64,000 nt of DNA from assembly GCA_030654965.1 (NCBI GenBank), contig JAURWL010000051.1, positions 6,737 through 70,736 on the forward strand. Reading direction: 5' to 3'. The notes beneath the pieces are model-generated. The model did not search any database. It was not told the origin of the DNA and worked only from the letters and a program-made list of their open reading frames with translations. Numbering within the stretch: the stretch's first letter is position 1; each line of letters begins with the position of its first letter. Source of the DNA: Dehalococcoidales bacterium (GTDB taxonomy: Bacteria; Chloroflexota; Dehalococcoidia; Dehalococcoidales; Fen-1064). The position numbers and the translations under genes are program-made. Shown here piece by piece: positions 278 through 14,762 of this stretch.

Positions 278-1426
278 TCATGCCTTATTATCTGCCATAT
301 CCCATAAAAGTTTCAGGTTATCATTTATCTGTTTCAGGAGCTTAACCGGACTCAGGCTTTGAAAAGCATCCATCAGGTCTCTCTTTTCCCTCTCAGAGAG
401 AATGCCCGACTTTAAGAGACGATAGCAGGGGGTTTGAGCTTCATCATAAGCCTTGTAGACCTTAGCTCCATGACGGCGCTTGCTTATCAGCTTCATTGAA
501 GGCTGGAAGAAGTTAGCATACAACCGTAATAAAGAATAGATTCGGTTAAGCATCTCTAAAGCCTCTTTTGAACTGTAACGTCGGTAACCGATAATTCTCC
601 TCACCAAAGCCCCGTTCTTCTGCTCTACATGACAGCTATCATTCTTTTTGTAAGGACGTGACCGTGTAAAGGTAATGCCCTCATGTTGGCAGTAACGGTA
701 AAGATACTGATTGATAAACTCACTGCCATTATCTGAATCCAGCCCCAGCAAAGGAAAAGGCAGACGGGCGCGTAAGTGATGGATAGCAGCCCCAACCCGT
801 TCCTGTCCTTTCCCCCAGACGCCACCACATTCCGTCCAGCCGGTGGCGATATCAACTGCGGTTAAGGTATTCAGGTAGAAGCCATCAACGCTCTCCCCAC
901 AATGAGCCACCAGGTCAACTTCAAGAAAACCAGGACGGTTATCCTGCCAATCAGCAAAGGTACGGATGGGAATAGAACTCTTCAGTAAACTACCCGGTCT
1001 GGTGGTAGAGAAATGGTGCCGGTCGCCTTGCTGACGGAACGGACGGAGTAGACGGTCAATTGTCGAAGGACTTATCTGGCGGAGTTGTGTTTCCACTGCC
1101 GGCGTTATTTTAATATCGCCATTCTTCTTTAATATCTTCACCAAGTCGTGTAAAAACGGGTGTAGACGTTTCGAGCAGAGCCTGTCAGCCGCTTCCCAGA
1201 CAATTTTTAGCACCGCTACCGCCTCGTGACTGTATTTCCGTGGTCGTCCCCGCTTTTTGCTACCGTGTGACGAAGTCCCTCTGTTCAAGAGCCTGATGGA
1301 TGCTTTGCGGTGTAGCCCAGTAGTTTTCGTAAACTCGTCTAATATCTTCGTCTTTCCCTCTTTCTTAGCTTGCCAATACCTATCACGGATTGCCTGCGCA
1401 TATTCTTGTATACTCTGTCGTGTCAC
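278..1426 (-). CDS. DDE (rve/integrase-core) transposase with N-terminal HTH; IS family not resolved
   Basis: 382 aa ORF with a basic N-terminal HTH region (RGRPRKY). The catalytic-core-like stretch includes LEVDLV ... GLDSDNGSEFIN ... HVEQKNG, typical of retroviral-integrase-type DDE transposases. Confidence 0.9.
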   Translation of the reverse strand: MTRQSIQEYAQAIRDRYWQAKKEGKTKILDEFTKTTGLHRKASIRLLNRGTSSHGSKKRGRPRKYSHEAVAVLKIVWEAADRLCSKRLHPFLHDLVKILKKNGDIKITPAVETQLRQISPSTIDRLLRPFRQQGDRHHFSTTRPGSLLKSSIPIRTFADWQDNRPGFLEVDLVAHCGESVDGFYLNTLTAVDIATGWTECGGVWGKGQERVGAAIHHLRARLPFPLLGLDSDNGSEFINQYLYRYCQHEGITFTRSRPYKKNDSCHVEQKNGALVRRIIGYRRYSSKEALEMLNRIYSLLRLYANFFQPSMKLISKRRHGAKVYKAYDEAQTPCYRLLKSGILSEREKRDLMDAFQSLSPVKLLKQINDNLKLLWDMADNKA

Positions 1427-1451
1427 CTGACCTCCTTATAATGTAGTCCTC

Positions 1452-1509
1452 GGTAACACTAATTTTGAGTCAATACCCCTTCCCTTGGTAACTATTATTA
1501 TGAGTCAAT
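1452..1509. repeat. Right IS end: two direct copies of the terminal motif (1452-1474, 1487-1509)
   Basis: The sequences ggtaacactaattttgagtcaat and ggtaactattattatgagtcaat lie 35 bp apart and are inverted relative to 189-247. Confidence 0.65.
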
Positions 1510-1517
1510 GCGCCACA

Positions 1518-1546
1518 TTGACAATGTAGAAACTATGTGTTAGCAT
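1518..1546 (+). promoter_or_regulatory. Sigma70-type promoter candidate for the glutamate synthase operon
   Basis: TTGACA (1518-1523), a 17-nt spacer ending in TGT (extended -10), then TAGCAT (1541-1546). It lies ~70 nt upstream of the ATG at 1617 and starts 9 bp beyond the IS right end. Confidence 0.5.
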
Positions 1547-1616
1547 TTAAAGCATACGGAAAACGGTTGCCGTATACCTTTCGCTCTCAAGATAGACTAA
1601 ATGAAGGCAAACAGCA

Positions 1617-2075
1617 ATGAAAAGAGTCCTGGTCAATGAACCCGCTTGCATGGGGTGCCATCTCTGCGAGGTGCACTGCCAGCTTCAGCATTCACGTTCC
1701 AGAGACCTGCTCAAAGCCTTCAAGAAGGAATCCCCCAAACCCACCCCCCGTCTCCGTATTGAAGTACGGAAACCGGTCTTCTTCTCGCTTCGCTGTCAAC
1801 AGTGCACGGAACCATCCTGTGTTTCTGCCTGCCTGACTGGCGCCCTCTCCCGCAACCCGGAAACGGGTGTAGTCACCACCGATGAAGACAGGTGCATCGG
1901 ATGCTGGACGTGCATTCTTGCCTGTCCGTATGGTAGTATCCGACAAGATGCCCTGAAACACAAACCTGTGAAATGCGACCTCTGCCAGGGAGCCGAGACG
2001 CCCGCCTGTGTGCTCAACTGCCCTAATGAAGCGCTTACCTGTGAAGAGGTCACTGCTAAGGTTCTGGTCAGATGA
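1617..2075 (+). CDS. 4Fe-4S dicluster ferredoxin-domain protein, first gene of the glutamate synthase operon
   Basis: Cys clusters CMGCHLCEVHC, CQQCTEPSCVSAC, CIGCWTCILACP and CDLCQG..CVLNCP. The stop overlaps the next start (ATGA). Confidence 0.85.
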   Translation: MKRVLVNEPACMGCHLCEVHCQLQHSRSRDLLKAFKKESPKPTPRLRIEVRKPVFFSLRCQQCTEPSCVSACLTGALSRNPETGVVTTDEDRCIGCWTCILACPYGSIRQDALKHKPVKCDLCQGAETPACVLNCPNEALTCEEVTAKVLVR

Positions 2076-2689
2076 TTACAGTTATTGATTATGGCGCTGG
2101 TAATCTGCGTAGTGTGGTCAATGCACTCACGCTACTTGGCTATCCCCACCGGGTGAGCCAGAAACCGGCTGATGTGCTCAGTGCCGATGCTGTTATCTTA
2201 CCCGGAGTCGGTGCTGCCGGCGATACAATGAAGAGCCTGGAAAAACTTTCCCTCATTAAACCAATCAAACAATATATCGCTGAAGGGAGGCCTTTTTTTG
2301 GTATCTGTATCGGACTTCAAGTCCTGCTGACAACCACTGAAGAAGGGGGTAGCCATAAATGTCTGGGTATTATCCCGGGTAAAGTTCGTAAACTAACCCC
2401 CGGGCTCAAAATACCGCACATGGGCTGGAATCAGGTAAAGCAACTCACCGCCCATCCCATCTTCTCGGGTATCCCGGATAACACGAATTTCTATTTCGTG
2501 CACAGCTACTATGCCATTCCAGAGAGCAACACTGCGGTCATCGGCACCACCGATTACGGTATCTCATTCTGCAGTGTTCTGGCACAGGGCAAACTGGTCG
2601 CTACGCAATTTCACCCGGAAAAGAGCGGGGAATGGGGACTGAAGCTATATGATAACTTTCTGAAGATGGCGGGGGAGAACAAGAGATGA
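2072..2689 (+). CDS. hisH: Imidazole glycerol phosphate synthase glutamine amidotransferase subunit HisH
   Basis: HisH hallmarks: GAGNLRSV, GICIGLQ (catalytic Cys), HMGWN, FVHSYY, QFHPEKS. Confidence 0.9.
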   Translation: MITVIDYGAGNLRSVVNALTLLGYPHRVSQKPADVLSADAVILPGVGAAGDTMKSLEKLSLIKPIKQYIAEGRPFFGICIGLQVLLTTTEEGGSHKCLGIIPGKVRKLTPGLKIPHMGWNQVKQLTAHPIFSGIPDNTNFYFVHSYYAIPESNTAVIGTTDYGISFCSVLAQGKLVATQFHPEKSGEWGLKLYDNFLKMAGENKR

Positions 2690-4011
2690 CCGGGACACTG
2701 GACACAAAATATCTCATAATAGGTAATTCCGCCGGTGGTATTGGCGCGGCGGAAGCAATCCGGCAGTTAGACAGGTCCGGCTCCATAACTATTATCTCTG
2801 ATGAGCCTTATCCCGCCTACTCCCGCCCGCTTATTTCCAAATACCTCGCCGGGGAATGCAAAATTGAGAAGATGCTTTTCCGTCCGTCTGATTTCTATGA
2901 GAAAAATTCTATCAGAGCTTTGCCGGGCAGGAAGGCAGTGCAACTTGATACCAAGGGACACACCGTAAAAATTGACGATGGTACAGTCATTGCATGGGAG
3001 CAACTCTTACTTGCCACCGGCGGCTCCCCGATTATTCCACAAATGGAAGGCGGGAACAGTCCTGCTGTCTTTACCTTCACCACGCTGGATGATGCCAGAG
3101 CAATCGACCATTACATAAAGAAGGGAATGCGGGCAGTAGTCATTGGCGGTGGTCTCATCGGCGTGAGTGTCACCGAGGCGCTGGTCAAACGCGGCGTCAG
3201 AGTCACCATTATCGAAATGAAAGACCGCATTCTCAATACGATTCTGGATGAGACAACATCGACGATGGCGACCGCTATTCTGGAAAAACATGGGGTGAAA
3301 ATTATCACCAACCACACAGTCACCGAAATCAACAGTGAATTTACCACCGACCGTATTCACGCCGTTACACTGGATGACAGCCGGGGAATCTCTTGCGAGG
3401 CAGTCATTGTCGCCATCGGTGTGCGACCGCGTTTAGAACTGGCAGCAAGCGCGGGCATCAAAGTCAATCGTGGTATCATCGTTGACCGCACCATGAAAAC
3501 ATCAAAATCGGATATTTATGCATGTGGTGATGCCGCAGAGGCTTATGATTTTATTCAGGGTGAAAACAGGGTCACCCCCATCTGGCCAAATGCCTATCTC
3601 GGCGGGAGGGTAGCCGGCTTTAATATGGCAGGTGTTTCCACAAAATACACCGGCGCTACCTCAATGAACTCGCTCAACTACTTTGGCATGGCAGTCACAT
3701 CCGCTGGCATGGTTATGCCACCCGATAAATCCTATGAAGTTATCAGCCGGCAGAACGAACGGAACTACCGGAAAGTGATTTTAAAAGATGGTTTGCTCAT
3801 CGGGCTAATTTTCTGTGGGGATATTGAGCAATCGGGCATCGTCTATGGCTTAATGAAAGACAGGGTTAATGTGTCCGATTTTAAACAGACGCTGGTCGCC
3901 GACGACTTCAGCTTCGTTTCTCTACCTGAGCCACTCTGGAGAGAGAGGTTAGCAGGTTCATTCAAGCCACAAACGGAGTCCGAACCAATCACCGTGGGGG
4001 TACTGCAATGA
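2686..4011 (+). CDS. FAD/NAD(P)-dependent pyridine nucleotide-disulfide-family oxidoreductase, likely electron input for glutamate synthase
   Basis: Two Rossmann dinucleotide motifs (IIGNSAGGIGAAE and VVIGGGLIGVSVTE) and a CGD motif (YACGDAAE). ATGA overlaps occur at both junctions. Confidence 0.8.
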   Translation: MTGTLDTKYLIIGNSAGGIGAAEAIRQLDRSGSITIISDEPYPAYSRPLISKYLAGECKIEKMLFRPSDFYEKNSIRALPGRKAVQLDTKGHTVKIDDGTVIAWEQLLLATGGSPIIPQMEGGNSPAVFTFTTLDDARAIDHYIKKGMRAVVIGGGLIGVSVTEALVKRGVRVTIIEMKDRILNTILDETTSTMATAILEKHGVKIITNHTVTEINSEFTTDRIHAVTLDDSRGISCEAVIVAIGVRPRLELAASAGIKVNRGIIVDRTMKTSKSDIYACGDAAEAYDFIQGENRVTPIWPNAYLGGRVAGFNMAGVSTKYTGATSMNSLNYFGMAVTSAGMVMPPDKSYEVISRQNERNYRKVILKDGLLIGLIFCGDIEQSGIVYGLMKDRVNVSDFKQTLVADDFSFVSLPEPLWRERLAGSFKPQTESEPITVGVLQ

Positions 4012-5147
4012 AAGACATGAGGAAAGTCAACAATCCGCACAATGATGACAAAGTAATCGATGCCTGCTCCATCTTCGGCGCTATGGACGTCACCGGTCGC
4101 CGATTCTCGGGTAACGGAGTCATCAAAGCTATCACCAATATGCACGACCGTAGTAACGGGTTAGGTGGCGGCTTTGCTGTCTACGGACTGTACCCTGCTT
4201 ATGCTGATTCCTATGCTTTCCACATCATGTACCTCAATGATGCGGCACAGAACCAGACCGAAGCTTTCCTAAAAGAGAATCTCCATATTCTGTATGGTGA
4301 AAAGGTGCCGACAAAGCCGACTGCGGGCATTGTCAACCCGCCGCTCTTCTGGCGTTATTTCGCCGAAGTCGGCAACCATAAACTGGAAGACATCCCTGAT
4401 GATGACTACATCGTCGCGAAGGTAATGCAGATTAATACCACCATTGATGATGTCTTTGTCTTCTCCAGCGGCAAGAACATGGGCGTCTTCAAAGGCGTTG
4501 GCTATCCGGAGCAAATCGCCGCTTATTTCTGCTTGGAACAGTACCAGGGTTATCTCTGGACAGCGCACGGCCGGTTTCCCACGAACACGCCGGGGTGGTG
4601 GGGCGGCGCTCACCCCTTTAGCGTCCTCGATTGGACGGTAGTGCACAATGGTGAAATCTCATCTTACGGCATCAACCGCCGCTGTCTGGAGCAATTCGGC
4701 TACCAGTGTACCATGCAAACCGATACGGAAGTGGTCGCCTATGCCGTCGATTTATTAGTACGCAAACACGGTCTACCCATAGAACTGGTGGCGAAAATCC
4801 TGGCACCGCCCTTCTGGAGCAATATTTCCCGGCAGGCTAACGGACAGAAGGAACTTCTGCTCACACTCCGTCAGGTCTATGGTAGCCTGCTTCTGAACGG
4901 ACCGTTCACCTTTATCATTGCTCATCAGGGGGAGATGATTGGTCTTACCGACCGCATCCGCCTACGCCCGCTCACCGTCGGGGAAAAGGGCAGTATGCTC
5001 TACCTCTCCTCGGAGGAATCAGCCATCCGACTGGTTAGTCCTGACCTTGACCGGGCGTGGACGCCGGTGGGCGGTGAGCCGGTTATCGGCAGGCTGGGCA
5101 AACCACTCCCATCTCAACGTGAATTGGTAATCGCTGGAGTTATGTGA
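4008..5147 (+). CDS. Class-II (Ntn) glutamine amidotransferase domain protein, archaeal-type glutamate synthase domain 1
   Basis: ACSIFG candidate nucleophile Cys, HGRFPTN, and [10 protein letters not shown], a motif typical of GltB/PurF-type amidotransferases. It is a stand-alone ~380 aa protein, as in split glutamate synthases. Confidence 0.85.
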
Positions 5148-5148
5148 A

Positions 5149-5940
5149 ATGCTTACAAAACGTATTATCCCCTGCCTTGATGTAAAAGCCGGGCGGGTCG
5201 TCAAAGGCGTGAAGTTCCGCGACCTCCGTGATGCCGGTGACCCAGTGGAATTAGCCGCTTTTTATAATGAACAAGGCGCCGATGAGCTGGTTTTTTATGA
5301 CATCACCGCTTCCAGTGATGACCGCGCCATCATGCGCGAGGTAGTAGAGCGCACCGCCAACCAGATATTTATTCCTCTCACCGTCGGGGGCGGACTTCGT
5401 ACTGTGGAAGACATGCATCGTATGCTTCAGGTTGGCGCCGATAAGGTCTCGATAAACACCGCCGCGGTTCTGAATCCAAAACTTATTACGGAAGGCGCGC
5501 GACGATTCGGCAGTCAATGCATCGTCTTGGGCATGGATGCCAAGAGAGTTACTGTCTCCAGTCCTGTCCGCTGGGAGGTGTTCACCCACACCGGAGCAGA
5601 CGGCGGACGCGGCACCGGTCTGGACGCAATTGAGTGGGCGCATAAGGCGGTAGAACTGGGCGCGGGCGAGATAGTGGTGAACAGCATTGACGCCGATGGC
5701 ACTCAGGCCGGATACGACCTGGAACTGTTACGGGCTATTTCCGAAAGTGTGACCGTGCCCGTAGTCGCCAGCGGTGGCGCCGGCGCTCCGGATGACCTCT
5801 TTCAGGCGCTCATCACGGGTAAAGCGGACGCCGTGCTTGCCGCCAGCATTTTTCACTACGGCACTTATTCAATTAGAGACGTTAAGAAATTCCTGTTAAA
5901 CAAGGGCATCCCGGTGAGGTTGGAGGTAGGGAAACCGTGA
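5149..5940 (+). CDS. hisF: Imidazole glycerol phosphate synthase cyclase subunit HisF
   Basis: The N-terminus [33 protein letters not shown] and ASGGAG are all classic HisF motifs. Confidence 0.92.
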
Positions 5941-7442
5941 AAATGCTCGTGCCTCCGAAGTTCAGAGTGGTGCGCGATGCGACGCGCTGTATCGGATGTC
6001 AGGTCTGCGTCAACCAGTGCAGTTTTGACGCTCACTATTATGATGCCGAAGACGTCGTCGTATGCAGTCGGGATGAAAACTGTGTCGCCTGCCATCGCTG
6101 TGCCACATTCTGTCCGACGGGCGCTCTGACTATTACCCGTAATCCGCTTGATTACCGTGAGAACCAGAATTGGCATCGCGAGGATATTGAAGACATCTGG
6201 CGGCAAGCAGAGAGCGGCGGCATGTTGCTCACAGGCATGGGTACTGACAAAGGCTACCCTATCTACTGGGACCATCTGCTCCTGAACGCCAGTCAGGTGA
6301 CCAACCCTTCCATCGACCCGCTCCGTGAACCGATGGAGTTGACCACATATCTGGGCAGGAAACCAGATAAGGTTAAAATAAGCCCCGACTCACTAAAACT
6401 TGAAACAGAGATGGCGCCGCAGGTCAGAATTGACGTGCCGGTAATGTTCTCTGCAATGTCCTATGGGGCAGTCAGCCTGAATGTCCACAAATCGCTGGCG
6501 CGCGCCGCCACGGAAATGGGCACGCTCTGGAATACCGGCGAGGGTGGTTTACACCCCAGCCTCTATAAATACGGGAAGAACACAATCGTCCAGGTAGCTT
6601 CGGGGCGGTTTGGCGTACAGCCCAGCTACCTTCATGCGGCGCGTGTCGTTGAAATCAAAATCGGGCAGGGCGCCAAACCGGGTATTGGCGGCCATCTGCC
6701 TGCGGAAAAGGTCAGCGCCGAGGTCTCTATGACACGAATGATTCCCCGGGGCACGGATGCCCTCTCCCCCGCTCCTCAGCACGATATTTATTCGATAGAG
6801 GATTTGACGCAACTCATCTACGCACTGAAAGAAGCGACCAATTACACCAAGCCAATATCGGTAAAAATTGCGGCAGTACATAACTCGGCGGCAATTGCCA
6901 GTGGCATGGTGCGGGCAGGTGCGGACATTATTGTCCTGGATGGGTTGCGGGGCGCTACTGGCGCCGCCCCCAAAGTCATCCGTGACAACGTTGGCATCCC
7001 CATTGAACTGGCACTGGCTTCAGTCGATACCAGATTACGACAGGAAGGCATTCGCAATCAGGCATCGCTGGTTATCTCCGGCGGTATCCGGAACAGCGGT
7101 GATGTCACTAAAGCCATCGCCCTCGGCGCCGATGCGGTCAATATCGGCACAGCGGCGCTCGTCGCGCTCGGCTGTCATGTCTGCCAGCAATGTCACACCG
7201 GGAAATGTGCCTGGGGCATCTGCACCACCGACCTTTCTCTGACACGGCGCATCAATCCCGAAATCGGTGCACGGCGTCTGGCGAATCTCTTGCGCGGCTG
7301 GAGTCTGGAAATCAAGGACATGCTCGGCGGCATGGGTATCAACGCTATCGAAAGTTTGCGCGGCAACCGGCTCCACCTCCGCGGTGTCGGACTGACGGAT
7401 ACGGAATTGGAAATCCTTGGAGTAAGGATGGCGGGGAGTTAA
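5937..7442 (+). CDS. Glutamate synthase FMN-binding/synthase domain protein with N-terminal 2x[4Fe-4S], archaeal-type domain 2
   Basis: [11 protein letters not shown] and [12 protein letters not shown] are followed by a GltS FMN-domain-like core ([42 protein letters not shown]). The GTG start overlaps the hisF stop. Confidence 0.9.
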
Positions 7443-7443
7443 G

Positions 7444-8202
7444 ATGGAAAGAAACAAGACGGCAACACTGGCGACCATTGATGCTACCAGCTTGCACTAC
7501 CGTAATCTCAATGCGCAACTACGCGACCTGGTCGCCGGCGGCACAGAAAAAATTATCATCAACAACGTATATGGCCAGCGGTATATTGGCACGGACTTGA
7601 ATAAGCCGGTCGAAATCGAGATACACGGCACACCAGGCAATGACCTAGGCGCTTTTATGGATGGTCCGACCGTCACCATTTACGGCAATGCCCAGGATGG
7701 CACCGGTAATACTATGAATGATGGCAGAATCATCGTGCACGGGCGCGCGGGCGATATCACCGGACTCTCAGCGCGGGGCGGGGAAATCTATGTCAGAGAC
7801 AGTGTGGGGTACCGCGCCGGCATCCACATGAAGGCATTTGGAGATAAAATGCCAGCGCTTGTTATTGGAAGCACGGCGCAGGATTTTGTCGGCGAGTATA
7901 TGGCGGGTGGTGTCCTTATTCTCCTCGGTATCGGATTGGAAGGAAATCAACATAAAGCCAGCTTCATTGGCACGGGCATGCACGGCGGTGCCATCTACTT
8001 CAGGGGCTCTATCGAAGAACACCAGTTAGGCAAAGAAGTCGGTATCGCAGAACTGAGCGGGGAAGATAGAACTACCTTGACTCGTCTGGTGACAAAATTC
8101 TCCCGCTATTTTAACTGTGATGCGGAAGGTATCCTAAAGGAGAAATTCACCAAACTCTATCCTAAATACCTCCGACCTTACGGTCAACTCTACACCTATT
8201 GA
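7444..8202 (+). CDS. Glutamate synthase GXGXG-domain protein, archaeal-type domain 3
   Basis: Repeated GXGXG-type beta-helix motifs (IHGTPGNDLGAFMDG, IYGNAQDGTGNTMNDG, VHGRAGDITG, GEYMAGG). Confidence 0.88.
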   Translation: MERNKTATLATIDATSLHYRNLNAQLRDLVAGGTEKIIINNVYGQRYIGTDLNKPVEIEIHGTPGNDLGAFMDGPTVTIYGNAQDGTGNTMNDGRIIVHGRAGDITGLSARGGEIYVRDSVGYRAGIHMKAFGDKMPALVIGSTAQDFVGEYMAGGVLILLGIGLEGNQHKASFIGTGMHGGAIYFRGSIEEHQLGKEVGIAELSGEDRTTLTRLVTKFSRYFNCDAEGILKEKFTKLYPKYLRPYGQLYTY

Positions 8203-8870
8203 GGTGCGCTTTGTTTCAGGTTCTACTGGTGGCAAAACCGGGTGGAGAGGCGAGCAAACTGACCGCAGCGCTCAGCCGTAACAACTTTACGTGCAGTATG
8301 GTGGGCAGCGCTGATGACGCCCTACAACAGGTCAACATACGCCTCCCCGACTTATTCCTCCTTGAAGTTGGCAGTATTCCGGAGAGCGAACACCTCTGTC
8401 GGTATCTGCGGGAGGAGAAGAAGCTCCCCGTTCTTGCCATTACCTCAATGGAAACGGCGCTCAATCTCGACGGCACCATCGATGATTTCGTACTCAGTCC
8501 TGTAAACACAGATGAGGTTGTCACCAGAGTAAAACGCCTGCTAAACAAAAAAACGAAAGCCGCCAGCCCGGAACAAATCACCATCGGGAATCTGGTCATT
8601 GATACAATCAAATATGAAGTCTATATCAGTGGCAGACCGGTATCGCTCACCTTCCGTGAATACGAACTCCTCAAATTTCTAGCAACGAACCCCGGTCGGG
8701 TCTTCACCCGGGACGCACTACTGAATGGAGTCTGGGGAGAGGATTTTTTCGGGGGCGACCGCACCGTTGACGTTCACATCCGCAGACTACGCGGCAAAAT
8801 TGATGACCAGACTCACACCTACATTGATACTGTCCGCAATATCGGTTACCGCTTTGTGAAAAAAGCCTGA
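8199..8870 (+). CDS. OmpR/PhoB-family winged-helix regulator with a degenerate receiver domain; start codon uncertain (TTG 8199 or TTG 8211)
   Basis: The C-terminal region (LTFREYELLKFL...VDVHIRRLRGKI...TVRNIGYRF) is a typical OmpR-type wHTH. In a hand alignment to OmpR the N-terminal receiver-like domain lacks the acidic pair, has Glu where the phospho-Asp is expected (DLFLLEV), and has SP instead of KP. Confidence 0.85.
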   Translation: MRCALFQVLLVAKPGGEASKLTAALSRNNFTCSMVGSADDALQQVNIRLPDLFLLEVGSIPESEHLCRYLREEKKLPVLAITSMETALNLDGTIDDFVLSPVNTDEVVTRVKRLLNKKTKAASPEQITIGNLVIDTIKYEVYISGRPVSLTFREYELLKFLATNPGRVFTRDALLNGVWGEDFFGGDRTVDVHIRRLRGKIDDQTHTYIDTVRNIGYRFVKKA

Positions 8871-8880
8871 ACGCCACTCT

Positions 8881-8917
8881 GTAGGCATCTGTAACCGAAC
8901 CGTAATACTGCCGTAAT
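8881..8917 (+). promoter_or_regulatory. Phased direct repeats (GTAGG, GTAAC, GTAAT, GTAAT) upstream of the 122-aa gene; candidate response-regulator operator
   Basis: Pentamers start at 8881, 8891, 8902 and 8913 (spacing 10, 11, 11). They are embedded in a 59-nt block (8889-8947) that matches 9462-9520 at 47 of 59 positions by hand alignment. Confidence 0.55.
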
Positions 8918-8972
8918 AATTCTTCGCTAAAGTAGAGACATCTAAACCAGCAGTAGGATAAGGAGGGCAAAT

Positions 8973-9341
8973 ATGTCATACGATTGGGGACCAAATTTTA
9001 TTGTTCCTTCCGAAACCTTGAAGAAATTTTCCGGCACAGTGAGATTGCGCGAGATGCTTGACGAAGACCTTCTGAAGCAGGAGCTTAAGGAACTGGAACT
9101 GTCTGGTCCTGTTTTAAGAATCACCAATCCGTGGTACTACCGCAAGAAGGGCACCAGCACCTGGATAAAAATTGGCGAATCTGAGGATAAGTCGGAGAAT
9201 TTTGCCGTGCAATGGGACACCAGAAAACTGGCGAATGGGAGATATGAGGTGCTGGGTCTGATGCATGTCTTCGTCAATAGAAGCGGCATGGAATACGCAA
9301 TCGCACGACAGAGCATGGTCGAGGTTTCAGTTAAAAATTAA
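8973..9341 (+). CDS. Hypothetical 122-aa protein of unknown function
   Basis: ATG preceded by AAGGAGG. No recognisable motif. It shares its upstream element with amtB. Confidence 0.6.
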   Translation: MSYDWGPNFIVPSETLKKFSGTVRLREMLDEDLLKQELKELELSGPVLRITNPWYYRKKGTSTWIKIGESEDKSENFAVQWDTRKLANGRYEVLGLMHVFVNRSGMEYAIARQSMVEVSVKN

Positions 9342-9452
9342 TCCACTGTCTCATAACGTACCCGCGACTGAGAGACCGGTCATCTATGTTCTTACAAACC
9401 GGCTTTGATTTCGTTTATCTGAAAATGGTCAAACTGATAAAACCCAGTCGCC

Positions 9453-9490
9453 GTAATTAACCTGTAACATGCCCGTAATACTGACGTAAT
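9453..9490 (+). promoter_or_regulatory. Phased direct repeats (GTAAT, GTAAC, GTAAT, GTAAT) upstream of amtB; candidate response-regulator operator
   Basis: Pentamers start at 9453, 9464, 9475 and 9486, an exact 11-bp period. They are followed by a conserved TAAAGT..AGACATCTAAC block and the RBS. Confidence 0.55.
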
Positions 9491-9536
9491 AATTGCCCGT
9501 TAAAGTGAAGACATCTAACCTGATAGGAGGTGATGG

Positions 9537-10772
9537 ATGTCCATAAACTACGCCGACACTGCCTGGGTATTGATGTCGGCGGCGATGGTCTTATTTATGA
9601 CGCCGGGGCTTGCCTTCTTTTACGGCGGACTGGTGAGACGGAAGAATTTCCTTTCCACCATTATGATGAGCTTCGCCTGCCTGGGTCTGATTGGTGTGCT
9701 CTGGGTAGTCTATGGCTACAGCTTGAGCTTCGGACCTGACAAAGCTGGTATTATTGGCGGGCTGGACTTTTTTGGATTGGCAGGTGTCGGACAAGAACCA
9801 TCATCTGTTTATGCCACCACCATCCCCCACCTCGCCTTTATGACATATCAGGGAATGTTCGCGATTATTACCGTAGCGCTCATTACCGGTGCCGTAGTAG
9901 AACGCATCAAATTCAGCGCCCTCATGCTTTTTTCGGTCTTATGGTTTACCTTTGTCTACACCCCGGTTGCGCACTGGGTCTGGGGAAGCGGCGGCTGGCT
10001 GGCGAAATTGGGCGTGCTCGATTTCGCCGGCGGCACGGTCGTGCATATTGCGGCGGGTATTTCCGCCTTATCACTGGCTCTCTTACTCGGTCCCCGTCGC
10101 GGCTTCAAAGAAAAGGAGCCGATGGAACCGGGTAACATACCGATGGTCGCGCTCGGCGCCGGCATTCTCTGGTTCGGATGGTTTGGTTTCAATGCCGGCA
10201 GTGCCCTGACTTCCGGCGGGTTGGCATCCAGCGCTTTCGTCGCGACGAACATCTCTGCCGCAACGGCCGCCCTGGTCTGGATGATACTATCATGGATTTA
10301 CCGTCGTCCGTCCCTGCTTGGTGTTGCCACCGGCGCCGTGGCAGGGTTGGTAGCAATAACTCCTGCGGCAGGTTTCGTACAGCCGATTATGGGCATACCA
10401 ATCGGCGCTGGCGCTGCCATTCTCTGCTATTATATGATGTTGTTTCGCGCAAAGACCGGGATCGATGAATCACTGGATGTCTGGGCGGTACACGGGATGG
10501 GTGGCACGTGGGGCGCACTGGCAACCGGCATTTTCTCCAGCGTCGCGGTTAATTCTGCCGGGAAAGATGGCCTCATCTACGGCAACCCCAAACAACTTCT
10601 CCTGCAGTTAATCGGCGTTCTTGTTGTCTGGGCATTCGCCTTTATGATGACCTGGGTTATCGGCAAGGTAGTGAATGCGACCATCGGATTACGTGTCAGC
10701 AGTGAAGAGGAATCAGTCGGGTTGGACATCTCACAGCATGGTGAACGCGCCTATGGAGGACCACTGCGATGA
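9537..10772 (+). CDS. amtB: Ammonium transporter AmtB
   Basis: AFFYGGLVRRKN, DFAGGTVVHIAAG, GWFGFNAGSAL and VHGMGGTWGALATGIF. The protein is multi-TM. Confidence 0.95.
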   Translation: MSINYADTAWVLMSAAMVLFMTPGLAFFYGGLVRRKNFLSTIMMSFACLGLIGVLWVVYGYSLSFGPDKAGIIGGLDFFGLAGVGQEPSSVYATTIPHLAFMTYQGMFAIITVALITGAVVERIKFSALMLFSVLWFTFVYTPVAHWVWGSGGWLAKLGVLDFAGGTVVHIAAGISALSLALLLGPRRGFKEKEPMEPGNIPMVALGAGILWFGWFGFNAGSALTSGGLASSAFVATNISAATAALVWMILSWIYRRPSLLGVATGAVAGLVAITPAAGFVQPIMGIPIGAGAAILCYYMMLFRAKTGIDESLDVWAVHGMGGTWGALATGIFSSVAVNSAGKDGLIYGNPKQLLLQLIGVLVVWAFAFMMTWVIGKVVNATIGLRVSSEEESVGLDISQHGERAYGGPLR

Positions 10773-11107
10773 AAAAAATTGAGGCGATAATCCGGGAAGA
10801 AAAACTAGCCCCGGTCAAAAAGTCGCTCGAAGACCTCGGTTACTATGGTATGACCATTACCGAAGTAGGCGGGAGAGGCAGAGAGAAGGGTATCGCTCTA
10901 AAGTGGGGCGCTAAAGAGTATCGCGTCGATTTCCTCCCCAAGCTTAAGGTTGAAGTGATTGTCCTGGATGAAGACCTGTCTCCCGTTTTGAATGCCATTG
11001 TCAGAAGCGCCCGCACCGGTGAGACAGGTGATGGGAAAATTTTCATCATCCCCGTGGAAAATGCAATCCGCATTCGTACTGGCGATTCCGGCAGTAATGC
11101 CGTTTAG
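10769..11107 (+). CDS. glnK: P-II nitrogen regulatory protein, amtB-linked GlnK type
   Basis: 112 aa, MKKIEAIIR..., a T-loop-like GGRGREKG...KEY, and a C-terminal TGETGDGKIFI. The start overlaps the amtB stop. Confidence 0.93.
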   Translation: MKKIEAIIREEKLAPVKKSLEDLGYYGMTITEVGGRGREKGIALKWGAKEYRVDFLPKLKVEVIVLDEDLSPVLNAIVRSARTGETGDGKIFIIPVENAIRIRTGDSGSNAV

Positions 11108-11139
11108 TAATCTGAAAAATGATAAAGGAGGTTATATCA

Positions 11140-12483
11140 ATGCCAGCCAGGAAAAAGGATGAAAGCAAGGAATATGTTCTCAAGATGGCAAAGGAGAATG
11201 ATGTCAAGTTTATCCGCCTGTGGTTTACTGACATCCTCGGTATGCTCAAGAGCTTTGCCATCACCGTCGAGGAACTGGAGGGCGCGCTGGAAGAAGGCAT
11301 GGGATTTGACGGTTCGTCAATCGAAGGGTTCGCACGTATTGACGAAAGCGATATGGTCGCTATGCCCGACCCGGATACTTTCCAGATTCTCCCATGGAGA
11401 CCCCGCGAGCATAATGCCGTCGCCCGGATGTTCTGCGATGTCTTGAAACCCGGTGGTGAACCATTTGATGGCGACCCCCGTTATGTCCTCAAGAAAAACC
11501 TGAAAAAGGCGGCAGACCTGGGCTATACCTATTATGTTGGACCAGAGCTGGAGTATTTCTACTTTAGAGATTCCAAAAGCACAGAGTTTCTTGATGCCGG
11601 CGGCTATTTTGACCTGACCCCACTGGATGCTGCCACAGACATGAGACGTGAAACCGTCCTCACTCTAGAACAAATGGGCATCGGTGTGGAGTATTCCCAT
11701 CATGAGGTCGCCCCCAGCCAGCACGAAATCGATATGCGCTATACAGATGCCCTGACCATGGCAGATAGCGTTATGACCTACCGCCTGGTGGTCAAGCAGG
11801 TTGCCATTAATCATGGTGTCTATGCCACTTTTATGCCCAAGCCTGTCTTCGGTATTAATGGCAGCGGTATGCACGTCCACCAATCGCTTTTCAAGGGCGA
11901 TAAGAACGCCTTTTTCGACCCAAAAGGGAAGTACTATCTATCGAAAATCGCGCGTAGTTATGTCGCCGGTCTATTGAAGTACGCCCCGGAAATCACTGCC
12001 GTTAATAACCAATGGATAAACTCCTACAAACGTCTGGTTCCCGGCTACGAAGCGCCTGTCTATCTATCATGGGCAAAACGCAATCGTAGTGACCTCATCC
12101 GTGTGCCGGAATACCGCCCCGGAAGAGAAAAAGCAACCAGAATCGAACTCCGTTCGCCCGACCCTGCCTGCAATCCATACCTGTGCTTCAGTGTGATGCT
12201 AGCGGCGGGTTTGAAGGGTATTGAGGACGGGCTGGAACCCCCCGAGCCGGTTGAAGAGAACGTCTACGAGATGAATGAAGAGGAACGCGCGAAACGCGGT
12301 ATCCGCACCTTGCCCGCCAGTCTGTCTGAGGCTATCCAGCTAACCGAGAAAAGTAAGCTGGTGCGGGAAGCTCTTGGTGAGCATGTTTTTAGCGCCTTCA
12401 TCACCAACAAGAAGATTGAATGGGACCTCTATCGTACTCAGGTTACCGGGTATGAGGTTAACCGGTACTTGCCAATTCTCTAA
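11140..12483 (+). CDS. glnA: Glutamine synthetase type I
   Basis: DGSSIEGF, MPKPVFGINGSGMHVHQS, NSYKRLVPGYEAP and RIELRSPD. I place the start at ATG 11140, 8 nt after AAGGAGG (11125-11131), rather than at the ORF-track start 11119. Confidence 0.95.
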   Translation: MPARKKDESKEYVLKMAKENDVKFIRLWFTDILGMLKSFAITVEELEGALEEGMGFDGSSIEGFARIDESDMVAMPDPDTFQILPWRPREHNAVARMFCDVLKPGGEPFDGDPRYVLKKNLKKAADLGYTYYVGPELEYFYFRDSKSTEFLDAGGYFDLTPLDAATDMRRETVLTLEQMGIGVEYSHHEVAPSQHEIDMRYTDALTMADSVMTYRLVVKQVAINHGVYATFMPKPVFGINGSGMHVHQSLFKGDKNAFFDPKGKYYLSKIARSYVAGLLKYAPEITAVNNQWINSYKRLVPGYEAPVYLSWAKRNRSDLIRVPEYRPGREKATRIELRSPDPACNPYLCFSVMLAAGLKGIEDGLEPPEPVEENVYEMNEEERAKRGIRTLPASLSEAIQLTEKSKLVREALGEHVFSAFITNKKIEWDLYRTQVTGYEVNRYLPIL

Positions 12484-12519
12484 AGAGGTAGTAATCTGAA
12501 GCTAAAAGGAGGTGGTAAA

Positions 12520-14256
12520 ATGCGCCGCCTGCGGATTGCTATGGCGCAGATTAATACCACCGTCGGCGATTTTGACGGCAATGTAAAAAAGATTCTGGGA
12601 GCCGTTGATACCGCCCGTTCTGCGGGTGCTGATATTGTCACGCTCCCGGAACTTGCCGTTTGCGGTTATCCGCCGGAAGACCTCCTCTTCAAGCCACAAT
12701 TTATCCAGGCAAATCTGGACTCGCTTCAGAAAATCGCTGAGTCCGCAAAGGGCATCACGGTCATCACCGGCTTTGTGGACGCCGATGGCGATATCTATAA
12801 TGCCGCCGCCGTTCTTCACTTCGGCAGAATAGCCGGCTTGTACCGCAAGATTTACCTCCCGAATTACGGCGTCTTCGATGAAAACCGGTATTTCCGCGCA
12901 GGTTCGGACTGCCCCATCTTCGTCATTGGTGGTGTGGCAATCGGCATCACTATCTGTGAAGATATCTGGTATGAAGCTGGACCCGCGACTGTTCAGGCAA
13001 ATGCCGGCGCTGAGGTTATTATTAATATCAGTGCCTCTCCATATCACGCCGGTAAAGGCGCTGCCCGTGAGAGGATGATCGCCACCCGCGCTTCGGATAC
13101 GGTGGCGATATTCGCTTATAATAATGCCGTCGGCGGGCAGGACGAGCTCGTCTTCGATGGTCACAGTGTCATCATGGATGAGAAAGGAATCCTTATTGCT
13201 CGCGGCAAGCAGTTTGAAGAAGACCTGATTATCGCCGACCTCGATGTAGAATCGGTTTTCCGGGCACGCCTGCATGACCCGCGTCAGCGGAAAGAGACCT
13301 TGCTGGCGGAGCAACAGCACTGGCGTCAGACCCGAACCGTCATCTCTGAGACACCGTTCTCCAGCGCCGGACACCCGGCAATAAAACAGCAGGCTGATGT
13401 GCTCGATCTCCCCACTGAAGTCTACCGCGCGCTTGTGCTGGGCACACATGACTACATTTTGAAGAACGACTTTAACAAAGTAGTCATCGGATTATCCGGC
13501 GGGATTGATTCGGCGATAGTGGCGACGATTGCTGTAGATGCACTCGGTAGTGAGAATGTTATTGGGGTATCCATGCCCTCACGCTTCTCATCAGAAGGAA
13601 GCAAAACCGATGCCCAGCGGCTGGCGGAGAACCTGAAAATCAAGCTCCTCACCATCCCCATCGAGAAAGTCTACATGGCATATCTGAACACACTCTCCGA
13701 ATCGTTCACCGGGGCTCAACCCGATATCACTGAAGAGAATATCCAGGCGCGTATCCGGGGTAATCTACTCATGGCGCTATCCAATAAATTCGGATGGTTA
13801 GTGCTCACAACAGGAAACAAAAGTGAAATGGCTACCGGCTATACCACGCTTTACGGTGATATGGTAGGTGGTTTTGCCGTTATCAAAGATGTACCCAAAA
13901 CGCTGGTCTATAAAATTGCCCGGCGCCGTAATCAAATGGCAGGTTATGAATTGATACAGGAATCAATCTTCACCAAACCACCCTCCGCGGAATTGCGTCC
14001 CGACCAGAAAGATATTGACAGCCTGCCACCGTATGAAGTCCTCGACCCTATTCTGACCGCCTACGTGGAAGACGATAAGTCTGTGGAGCAAATCATTGCC
14101 CTGGGGTTTGATAAGGCGACCGCACAGAGGACAGCCAAACTCGTTGACCGTAGTGAGTATAAGCGGAGACAGGCGCCACCGGGAGTAAAAATCACCACCC
14201 GTGCCTTTGGACGGGACAGAAGATTACCTATCGTCAATCGGTTCAAGGAATGGTGA
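12520..14256 (+). CDS. nadE: Glutamine-dependent NAD+ synthetase (CN-hydrolase domain plus PP-loop synthetase domain)
   Basis: The N-terminal nitrilase-like domain has LPELAVCGY and ITICEDIW. The C-terminal domain has the PP-loop GLSGGIDSA. Confidence 0.93.
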   Translation: MRRLRIAMAQINTTVGDFDGNVKKILGAVDTARSAGADIVTLPELAVCGYPPEDLLFKPQFIQANLDSLQKIAESAKGITVITGFVDADGDIYNAAAVLHFGRIAGLYRKIYLPNYGVFDENRYFRAGSDCPIFVIGGVAIGITICEDIWYEAGPATVQANAGAEVIINISASPYHAGKGAARERMIATRASDTVAIFAYNNAVGGQDELVFDGHSVIMDEKGILIARGKQFEEDLIIADLDVESVFRARLHDPRQRKETLLAEQQHWRQTRTVISETPFSSAGHPAIKQQADVLDLPTEVYRALVLGTHDYILKNDFNKVVIGLSGGIDSAIVATIAVDALGSENVIGVSMPSRFSSEGSKTDAQRLAENLKIKLLTIPIEKVYMAYLNTLSESFTGAQPDITEENIQARIRGNLLMALSNKFGWLVLTTGNKSEMATGYTTLYGDMVGGFAVIKDVPKTLVYKIARRRNQMAGYELIQESIFTKPPSAELRPDQKDIDSLPPYEVLDPILTAYVEDDKSVEQIIALGFDKATAQRTAKLVDRSEYKRRQAPPGVKITTRAFGRDRRLPIVNRFKEW

Positions 14257-14303
14257 TGTAGTATAGTGGTATAATTGAACCGCTTATATTCAGGTTCTAA
14301 GGT

Positions 14304-14762
14304 TTAAAAACCTGCTAGGATAAGCCAGAACCAGGCAACGGCAATACCCAATGCCGTTCCCGCGATGACCTGAAACGGCGTGTGCCCGACTAATTCCCGT
14401 AGTTCGGCTTCTAAGACAACTCTCGATTGTCTGAGCTTGAGTTCATGCACAATACGGTTCAGAACGACCGATTGCTGGCTAACTGACTGCCTTACACCTG
14501 CCGAGTCATATATGACTATTAAAGCTAAAACGACCGAGATACCGAAGACTGCCGACCCAAAACCCTCTGTCATACCCACTGATACAGCTAAGGCGCTGAC
14601 CATAGCCGAATGGGCGCTCGGCATACCCCCACTACTGACAAAATAGCTCAGGTCAAACCCATTACCCTTTATCACCGCAATTAACATCTTTAATATCTGC
14701 GCCAGCGCCCAGGTACAAATGGGAATTATCAAAACCTCATTGGTAATAATATCTAATAGCAT
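14304..14762 (-). CDS. Divergent PAP2-family membrane protein (DUF212-like)
   Basis: GGMPSAHSA and IVIYDSAGVR motifs in a small polytopic membrane protein. Confidence 0.8.
   Translation of the reverse strand: MLLDIITNEVLIIPICTWALAQILKMLIAVIKGNGFDLSYFVSSGGMPSAHSAMVSALAVSVGMTEGFGSAVFGISVVLALIVIYDSAGVRQSVSQQSVVLNRIVHELKLRQSRVVLEAELRELVGHTPFQVIAGTALGIAVAWFWLILAGF

Follow-up and report, generated by a model that had tools for sequence, protein, structure and literature searches.

The gene string studied here lies at positions 1617-8202 of a 64,000-nucleotide stretch of DNA from a Dehalococcoidales bacterium (contig JAURWL010000051.1, designated C18; the whole stretch is hereafter called the window). 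It carries hisH and hisF, which encode the two subunits of imidazole glycerol phosphate (IGP) synthase, interleaved with the genes of a split glutamate synthase. With respect to the glutamate synthase, the closest described system is the five-gene cluster Clo1313_2032-2036 of Clostridium thermocellum, in which, as in the window, each GltB domain has a gene of its own, a ferredoxin-type subunit is also encoded, glnA lies alongside and GltD is lacking (PMC9888227). This C. thermocellum cluster is upregulated or used under ammonium limitation, and its deletion alters the ammonium-limited physiology; its electron donor is annotated as ferredoxin, and neither its activity nor its electron donor was ever measured (PMC9888227). 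It was described without his genes, unlike the window, and the comparison was made at the level of the cluster. With respect to IGP synthase, the HisH-HisF pairs of Thermotoga maritima (1GPW/1THF) and Thermus thermophilus (1KA9) have the same Cys-His-Glu triad, D11 and D130 aspartates and ammonia-gate residues as the pair studied here. The genes of the window differ from them in that they are adjacent neither to each other nor to other his genes, and in that they belong to a putative nitrogen-assimilation operon located behind a predicted nitrogen-type operator. With respect to regulation, NrpR is a 2-oxoglutarate-dependent repressor of nif and glnA (PMC9765008). As in the archaea Methanococcus maripaludis and Methanosarcina mazei, the present genome encodes an NrpR homologue, and a palindrome that may be its operator precedes both nrpR and the present operon; unlike in these archaeal systems, the host is a bacterium, the promoter is of the sigma-70 type and the targets, predicted from the sequence, include histidine genes.

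Using a combination of methods (Pfam and NCBIfam profile searches with the curated NCBIfam equivalog cut-offs, phylogenetic trees and gene-order comparisons), we analysed the window, the metagenome-assembled genome to which contig C18 belongs (85.6% completeness), 40 relatives sampled for his genes (41 genomes with the own genome) and a wider sample of 201 Dehalococcoidia genomes. We propose with good confidence that the window carries one nitrogen-assimilation operon encoding two separate glutamine-using enzymes, the split glutamate synthase and IGP synthase, which are co-regulated by the nitrogen status. The features of this operon are as follows:

1518-1546, + strand: predicted promoter of the sigma-70 type (TTGACA-17-TAGCAT, the -10 box carrying a TG extension), which ranks first among the promoter-like sites of 1300-14600
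1556-1573, 3' of the -10 box and 5' of fdx: palindrome ACGGAAAACGGTTGCCGT, a predicted operator (NrpR-type repressor site)
1617-2075, + strand: fdx, poly-ferredoxin of 152 amino acids with four Cys-cluster motifs (Fer4_11; HydN/DmsB/AegA-N/PadI-N-like)
2072-2689, + strand: hisH (TIGR01855)
2686-4011, + strand: FAD/NAD(P)H oxidoreductase of 441 amino acids (Pyr_redox_2 and Rubredoxin_C; best matches to PadH and to the N-terminal half of NirB)
4008-5147, + strand: gat2, GltB domain 1, class-II (Ntn) glutamine amidotransferase (GATase) of 379 amino acids (PF00310, 37 bits; PF13522; GATase_6/7)
5149-5940, + strand: hisF (TIGR00735)
5937-7442, + strand: fmn, GltB domain 2, FMN/synthase domain of 501 amino acids (PF01645, 457 bits)
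7444-8202, + strand: gxgxg, GltB domain 3 (GXGXG) of 252 amino acids (PF01493, 106 bits)
8199-8870, + strand: OmpR/PhoB-type regulator (Trans_reg_C only), with a TTGA overlap with gxgxg

The seven genes between 1617 and 8202 occur on the + strand in the order fdx-hisH-oxidoreductase-gat2-hisF-fmn-gxgxg, and their coordinates agree with the original prediction that each junction is a 4-nt overlap or a 1-nt gap. The overlaps are ATGA at the fdx/hisH, hisH/oxidoreductase and oxidoreductase/gat2 junctions and GTGA at the hisF/fmn junction, and the 1-nt gaps separate gat2 from hisF and fmn from gxgxg. Because the OmpR-type regulator, in which Pfam detects no receiver domain, is also overlap-coupled, the operon probably comprises eight genes. 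Between 1617 and 8202 we found on the + strand neither a site with a score equal to that of the promoter plus a TG extension (a site at 2768 also matches 10/12) nor a convincing terminator. The possibility of a chimeric assembly was rejected, as independent contigs of three other studies, which span 1517-6031, 1517-5633 and 5887-8172, have an identical gene order. As this order is repeated in these contigs and in many genomes, some of them closed, it is no assembly artefact.

The three GltB domains occur, as predicted, on three separate polypeptides (PF00310, PF01645 and PF01493), and GltB domain 2 is the only full Glu_synthase domain found in a search of the genome. It begins with an N-terminal 2x[4Fe-4S] module: a CxxCxxCxxxC motif occurs at residue 18 and again at residue 49. 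The candidate nucleophile of GltB domain 1 is Cys20 (in ACSIFG, within 4008-4070), which is preceded by a 19-residue leader that also occurs in relatives whose alignments begin at residue 1; orthologs with 60-83% identity occupy the same position in the relatives. This leader would need to be removed as a propeptide, a processing that is known for bacterial GltB and PurF. No GltD equivalog was found in the operon or the genome (the best GltD-family match scores 263 bits, cut-off 447.7), and the absence of a GltD-like small subunit had been correctly anticipated. The place of GltD is occupied by the ferredoxin and the PadH-like flavoprotein, the oxidoreductase of the operon, which has a GGGLIG dinucleotide motif at residue 154. 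We propose that this two-protein module stands in for GltD, the oxidoreductase being the entry point of NAD(P)H and the ferredoxin being the electron wire. NAD(P)H would hand electrons to the PadH-like flavoprotein, from which they would pass through the four-cluster ferredoxin to the clusters and FMN of GltB2. Meanwhile, GltB1 would release ammonia from glutamine, GltB2 (FMN + 2x[4Fe-4S]) would turn 2-oxoglutarate into glutamate, and GltB3 (GXGXG) would be a structural part. For the split glutamate synthase, the conserved pair of ferredoxin and PadH-like flavoprotein suggests a concrete route of electron input that can be tested.

The two his genes of the operon have the sequence features of ordinary IGP synthase genes. 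HisH scores 224.3 bits against TIGR01855 (cut-off 105.4), possesses the complete catalytic triad (Cys79 in GICIG, and His181 and Glu183 in HPE) and has full-length matches in the PDB (100-131 bits), its residues 2-203 aligning to 4gud. In the HisH tree it belongs to a starred clade (SH-aLRT 98; SH-like approximate likelihood-ratio test) of Chloroflexota that comprises L136, L075 and the HisH of Chloroflexia. HisF, hereafter designated type A, scores 377.8 bits against TIGR00735 (cut-off 294.55), as compared with 275 bits against the paralog model WbuZ (cut-off 300), 220 bits against AglZ/HisF2 and 131 bits against HisA. In an alignment of 131 HisF sequences, with residues numbered as in T. maritima HisF, it keeps D11, D130, the ammonia-gate residues R5/E46/K99/E167 and both phosphate-binding motifs (ASGGAG is present). 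Its matches in the PDB are also full length (259-277 bits, including 259 bits to T. maritima 1thf/1gpw). In the HisF tree, which was rooted on HisA, type A is placed among Chloroflexota sequences, in the starred clade of canonical HisF of bacteria (SH-aLRT 99); those members of this clade, and of the HisH clade, that do not belong to the Dehalococcoidales group sit in hisH-hisA-hisF(-hisI) operons. Judged from these scores, residues and trees, the in-operon hisH and hisF are the canonical, vertically inherited housekeeping IGP synthase genes, and not the non-histidine paralogs that the original prediction had considered as a possible objection; the divergent hisF of the genome is the other copy, described below.

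The rest of the histidine pathway lies elsewhere in the genome. Genome-wide family searches found no match to other his genes on contig C18; they placed a hisZ-like gene, a tandem-domain hisG, hisD, hisC and hisB on contig C106, and hisA-hisI on contig C237 (tblastn with the own HisA and HisI covered the loci of the relatives, not the window). The hisH and hisF genes are separated from each other and from all other his genes. The hisG gene on C106 (L146:1399-2832) encodes 477 amino acids with a tandem pair of HisG domains (TIGR00070, 233 bits over two stretches), and the HisZ/HisS-like gene located 5' of it scores under both equivalog cut-offs. The hisH gene is single in the own genome, and exactly one copy occurs in 34 of the 41 genomes; no second hisH was found in the own genome or in the 40 relatives, among them G011, G026 and G032, whose genomes are closed or nearly so. 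By contrast, a second, divergent hisF, designated type B, is present on contig C23, in the following operon:

L012:4135-10547 (C23): second nitrogen operon, comprising nrpR, hisF type B, a 530-amino-acid GltS-FMN protein (glts530) and nuoE-like, nuoF-like and hoxU-like genes

The nrpR gene of this operon (L012:9549-10547) encodes an NrpR homologue (PF01995, 279.5 bits; HTH_12, 77.9 bits). The type B HisF is 51% identical to type A, scores 323 bits, above the HisF cut-off, and keeps the catalytic aspartates; in type B, however, position 5 is K and position 123 is D/E. In the HisF tree type B forms a separate outlier clade, and its gene nearly always occurs within an nrpR-hisF-glts530 unit. The glts530 product is a divergent FMN-binding protein of the glutamate-synthase family, a family named by a language-model atlas only; a PDB sequence search with it returned no match. 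Only type A was found in 10 of the 40 relatives, including the 100%-complete G026, and in another five (G007, G013, G025, G030 and G037) type B is the only HisF. No hisH was detected in these five genomes, which retain hisA (5/5) and hisD (4/5). As these type-B-only genomes without hisH keep hisA, our data suggest that type B can work without a glutaminase and may operate as an ammonia-using IGP synthase in the type-B-only lineages.

As regards transcription, a single predicted promoter (1518-1546) precedes fdx, and the palindrome ACGGAAAACGGTTGCCGT begins ten nt 3' of it. This conserved promoter-proximal palindrome is new for this operon. Its 16-mer core, CGGNAA-N4-TTNCCG, occurs in six copies in the genome (about 1.8 expected), of which three lie inside genes. 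One of the three intergenic copies is that at 1556-1573 of the window; the other two belong to the C23 cluster, where they lie upstream of nrpR (at a distance of 18 nt) and of the nuoE-like gene (12 nt). Allowing for one mismatch at most, 13 of 22 relatives have the core 27-87 nt upstream of fdx, in interleaved and un-interleaved operons alike, a result matched by only 0.3% of shuffled sequences. In addition, GGAA-N6-TTCC-like versions occur 15-47 nt before the nrpR/hisF-B operons of relatives, and in G005 and G008, which have lost the glutamate synthase genes, a one-mismatch copy of the core is located upstream of hisH. GTAAY boxes of the GlnR type were not found upstream of fdx in the upstream sequence free of the insertion sequence (IS) described below; phased GTAAY boxes occur before orf122 and amtB, further downstream in the window.

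The interleaved layout is not peculiar to the source genome. The complete order is identical in G003, G024, G028, G032 and G039 and is found in part in G038, all members of the same order, Dehalococcoidales. It also occurs in genomes of other families (G057, G116, G117, G136, G166 and G204) and in a contig named 'uncultured Dehalococcoidales bacterium'; altogether, at least 16 genomes drawn from many families share it. Two of these genomes, G117 and G032, are closed (1.36-1.52 Mb), and most of the interleaved clusters are followed by the regulator, amtB, glnK, glnA and nadE. Comparing synteny in relatives, as had been recommended, thus indicated inheritance of the layout throughout Dehalococcoidales and in related Dehalococcoidia. 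It is already present, unremarked, in published Dehalococcoides genomes. The 2010 pan-genome metabolic model of Dehalococcoides mccartyi (in SBML format, Systems Biology Markup Language), with its consecutive gene numbers, lists 290 as GlnA, 292+293 and 295 as GltB parts, 296/298 as 'GltAB', 294 and 297 as IG3PS, and 273 as a further HisF (PMC2930330). These numbers mirror the order glnA...gxgxg-fmn-hisF-gat2-oxidoreductase-hisH-fdx plus a second hisF, which is the order of the closed genomes G117 and G032, and the paper gives no discussion of the interleaving (PMC2930330). Our literature search found no paper discussing hisH or hisF within a glutamate synthase operon, and the operon genes are not mentioned in the main text of a 2014 D. 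mccartyi transcriptome paper.

The two gene sets also occur apart. A close ortholog of the FMN subunit is present in about 43 of the 201 Dehalococcoidia genomes, with hisF directly upstream of it in 20 of these. In eight Dehalococcoidia genomes the five glutamate synthase genes are contiguous (fdx-oxidoreductase-gat2-fmn-gxgxg), with no his gene between them. Conversely, the 100%-complete G026 and several other genomes have hisH-hisF with no glutamate synthase genes alongside, and a genome-wide search of G026 for orthologs of the split FMN subunit gave no match. In such genomes, hisH-hisF have kept glnA, amtB or the regulator as a neighbour, except that orf122 was the only neighbour recognised in G026. 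A contig of run X9 joins the end of hisH (2631) straight to the start of hisF (5150), and in G002, of the same genus, hisH-hisF come after a ferredoxin remnant and have no glutamate synthase genes alongside (L015, L159). Hence, close relatives have lost precisely the glutamate synthase genes and kept hisHF. In genus g7 (L047:4309-7210 and other loci), both HisH and HisF fall with sequences of deltaproteobacteria or Poribacteria, not with those of Chloroflexota, and the hisH-hisF pair is directly upstream of glnA; this looks like a xenologous replacement in place. In G049 (L179:4347-6281), which is un-interleaved, hisH is located just upstream of fdx on the opposite strand and hisF is on another contig, an arrangement that may be an intermediate or a rearranged state.

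We propose the following scenario. The hisH and hisF genes would have left the his operon in an ancestor that Dehalococcoidales have in common with related Dehalococcoidia, a departure after which hisA-hisI would have remained adjacent to each other and hisG/D/C/B apart. The two genes would have landed at two places within the glutamate synthase operon. The promoter at 1518-1546 would drive all eight genes, and a repressor, most likely the NrpR homologue sensing 2-oxoglutarate, would act at the palindrome 1556-1573, such that the glutamine-consuming step of histidine synthesis would follow the nitrogen status. Co-regulation by the glutamine or nitrogen supply, which the original prediction had suggested, remains the best-supported reason for the layout. 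It agrees with the presence of one promoter with a conserved predicted operator, with the occurrence of the glutamine-dependent nadE and of glnA in the same gene string, and with the persistence of hisH-hisF beside nitrogen genes after the loss of the glutamate synthase, a persistent link that speaks for selection on co-regulation. Several points weigh against this proposal. Co-transcription is deduced from the gene spacing and the absence of clear internal signals, and the specificity for the electron donor is a prediction, the activity of this type of enzyme never having been measured, in C. thermocellum or elsewhere. It is unusual for an obligate heterodimer to be encoded by non-adjacent genes, and the two insertion points have no known reason. 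The repression of an essential histidine gene under plentiful nitrogen needs a leaky or basal expression. Furthermore, the strict 18-mer of the palindrome, which resembles the archaeal NrpR operator consensus GGAA-N6-TTCC, occurs in 31 of the 201 Dehalococcoidia genomes, not above the reversed control. As the 18-mer shows no genome-wide enrichment, the operator claim rests on its position and on its sharing with nrpR.

A first alternative is that the glutamate synthase complex physically includes HisH and/or HisF, with, for example, a shared ammonia channel or glutaminase, the gene order reflecting the order of assembly. It would account for the position of hisF between the GATase-II and FMN genes (1-nt gap on one side, 4-nt overlap on the other), which is kept across many families, and for the fact that a HisF gene adjoins a GltS-FMN-type gene in the second operon and glts530 in G008. 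Against such a composite enzyme, both modules occur alone (the eight genomes with no his genes between the glutamate synthase genes on the one hand, G026 and others with no split glutamate synthase on the other) and are therefore separable, and HisF and HisH, orthologs of the canonical pair, keep all the catalytic and gate residues of IGP synthase; hence, we regard this alternative as very improbable. We attach equally little credence to the view that the in-operon copies are non-histidine paralogs, histidine being synthesized through the type B HisF of C23. That second HisF does score above the family cut-off (323 bits), and it can probably serve the pathway, in view of the five type-B-only relatives that keep hisA, and in four cases hisD, without hisH. 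Nevertheless, type A is the canonical ortholog with the higher score (378 versus 323 bits) and type B is the outlier clade, type A is the only HisF found in a quarter of the sampled relatives, G026 included, and the sole hisH of the genome sits in the present operon.

The layout might also be a historical accident, i.e. a neutral rearrangement that was frozen by the tight packing of the genes and brings no regulatory benefit. No mechanism demands the two insertion points, and about half of the split glutamate synthase operons of the class do without his genes, two points in favour of such an accident. What makes it unlikely, though less so than the two preceding alternatives, is that in several lineages hisH-hisF stay by glnA, amtB or the regulator after the loss of the glutamate synthase, that G005 and G008 retain the operator-like site upstream, that the xenologous pair of genus g7 also stands directly before glnA, and that the glutamine-dependent nadE lies within the same gene string. 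We therefore return to the nitrogen-assimilation operon: the layout is real, and what it most probably reflects is ordinary co-regulation, in which a HisH-HisF pair of the usual kind is expressed together with a split glutamate synthase. It is an example of the breakup of a his operon in which only the glutamine-dependent step joins the nitrogen regulon. The layout itself is no discovery; more useful as starting points are the NrpR-type operator predicted here and the candidate module for electron input.

We also put forward, tentatively and as a guess that could well prove wrong, that there is one nitrogen regulon under a homologue of the archaeal repressor. In this regulon, the 2-oxoglutarate-sensing repressor would bind the palindrome TACGGNAA-N4-TTNCCGTA and jointly control the split glutamate synthase, the glutamine-dependent HisH-HisF, and the operon of nrpR, the HisH-independent HisF and the stand-alone GltS-FMN protein. 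If this is true, there would be two nitrogen-regulated routes to the histidine precursor, one using glutamine and the other probably free ammonia. An operator common to nrpR and the present operon would provide a way into NrpR-type nitrogen control in bacteria; cultured strains of Dehalococcoides and Dehalogenimonas matter for bioremediation when nitrogen is limiting.

The genes that follow the regulator in the window, and the IS element that precedes the promoter, are as follows:

8973-9341, + strand: orf122
9537-10772, + strand: amtB
10769-11107, + strand: glnK
11119-12483, + strand: glnA
12520-14256, + strand: glutamine-dependent nadE
185-1516, - strand: IS element of 1332 bp, with an rve/IS481-like transposase open reading frame at 278-1426 (Pfam rve, NCBIfam IS481)

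The orf122 product (122 amino acids) has no Pfam or NCBIfam match, and its gene accompanies the cluster in relatives; homologues are located between fdx and hisH in G003 and directly 5' of hisH-hisF in G026 (L155:6329-6694; L156:11249-11614). The IS element stops 1 nt short of the operon's -35 box, leaving the promoter and the predicted operator intact, and its end includes GGTAAC motifs (at about 1452 and 1487). It has moved the former upstream sequence 1.3 kb off, including an inverted repeat, GTTAGCT-N9-AGCTAAC, at 145-167. The element is strain-specific and polymorphic, the empty site being present in contigs of runs X2 and X10 (two other studies), which join position 184 directly to position 1517.

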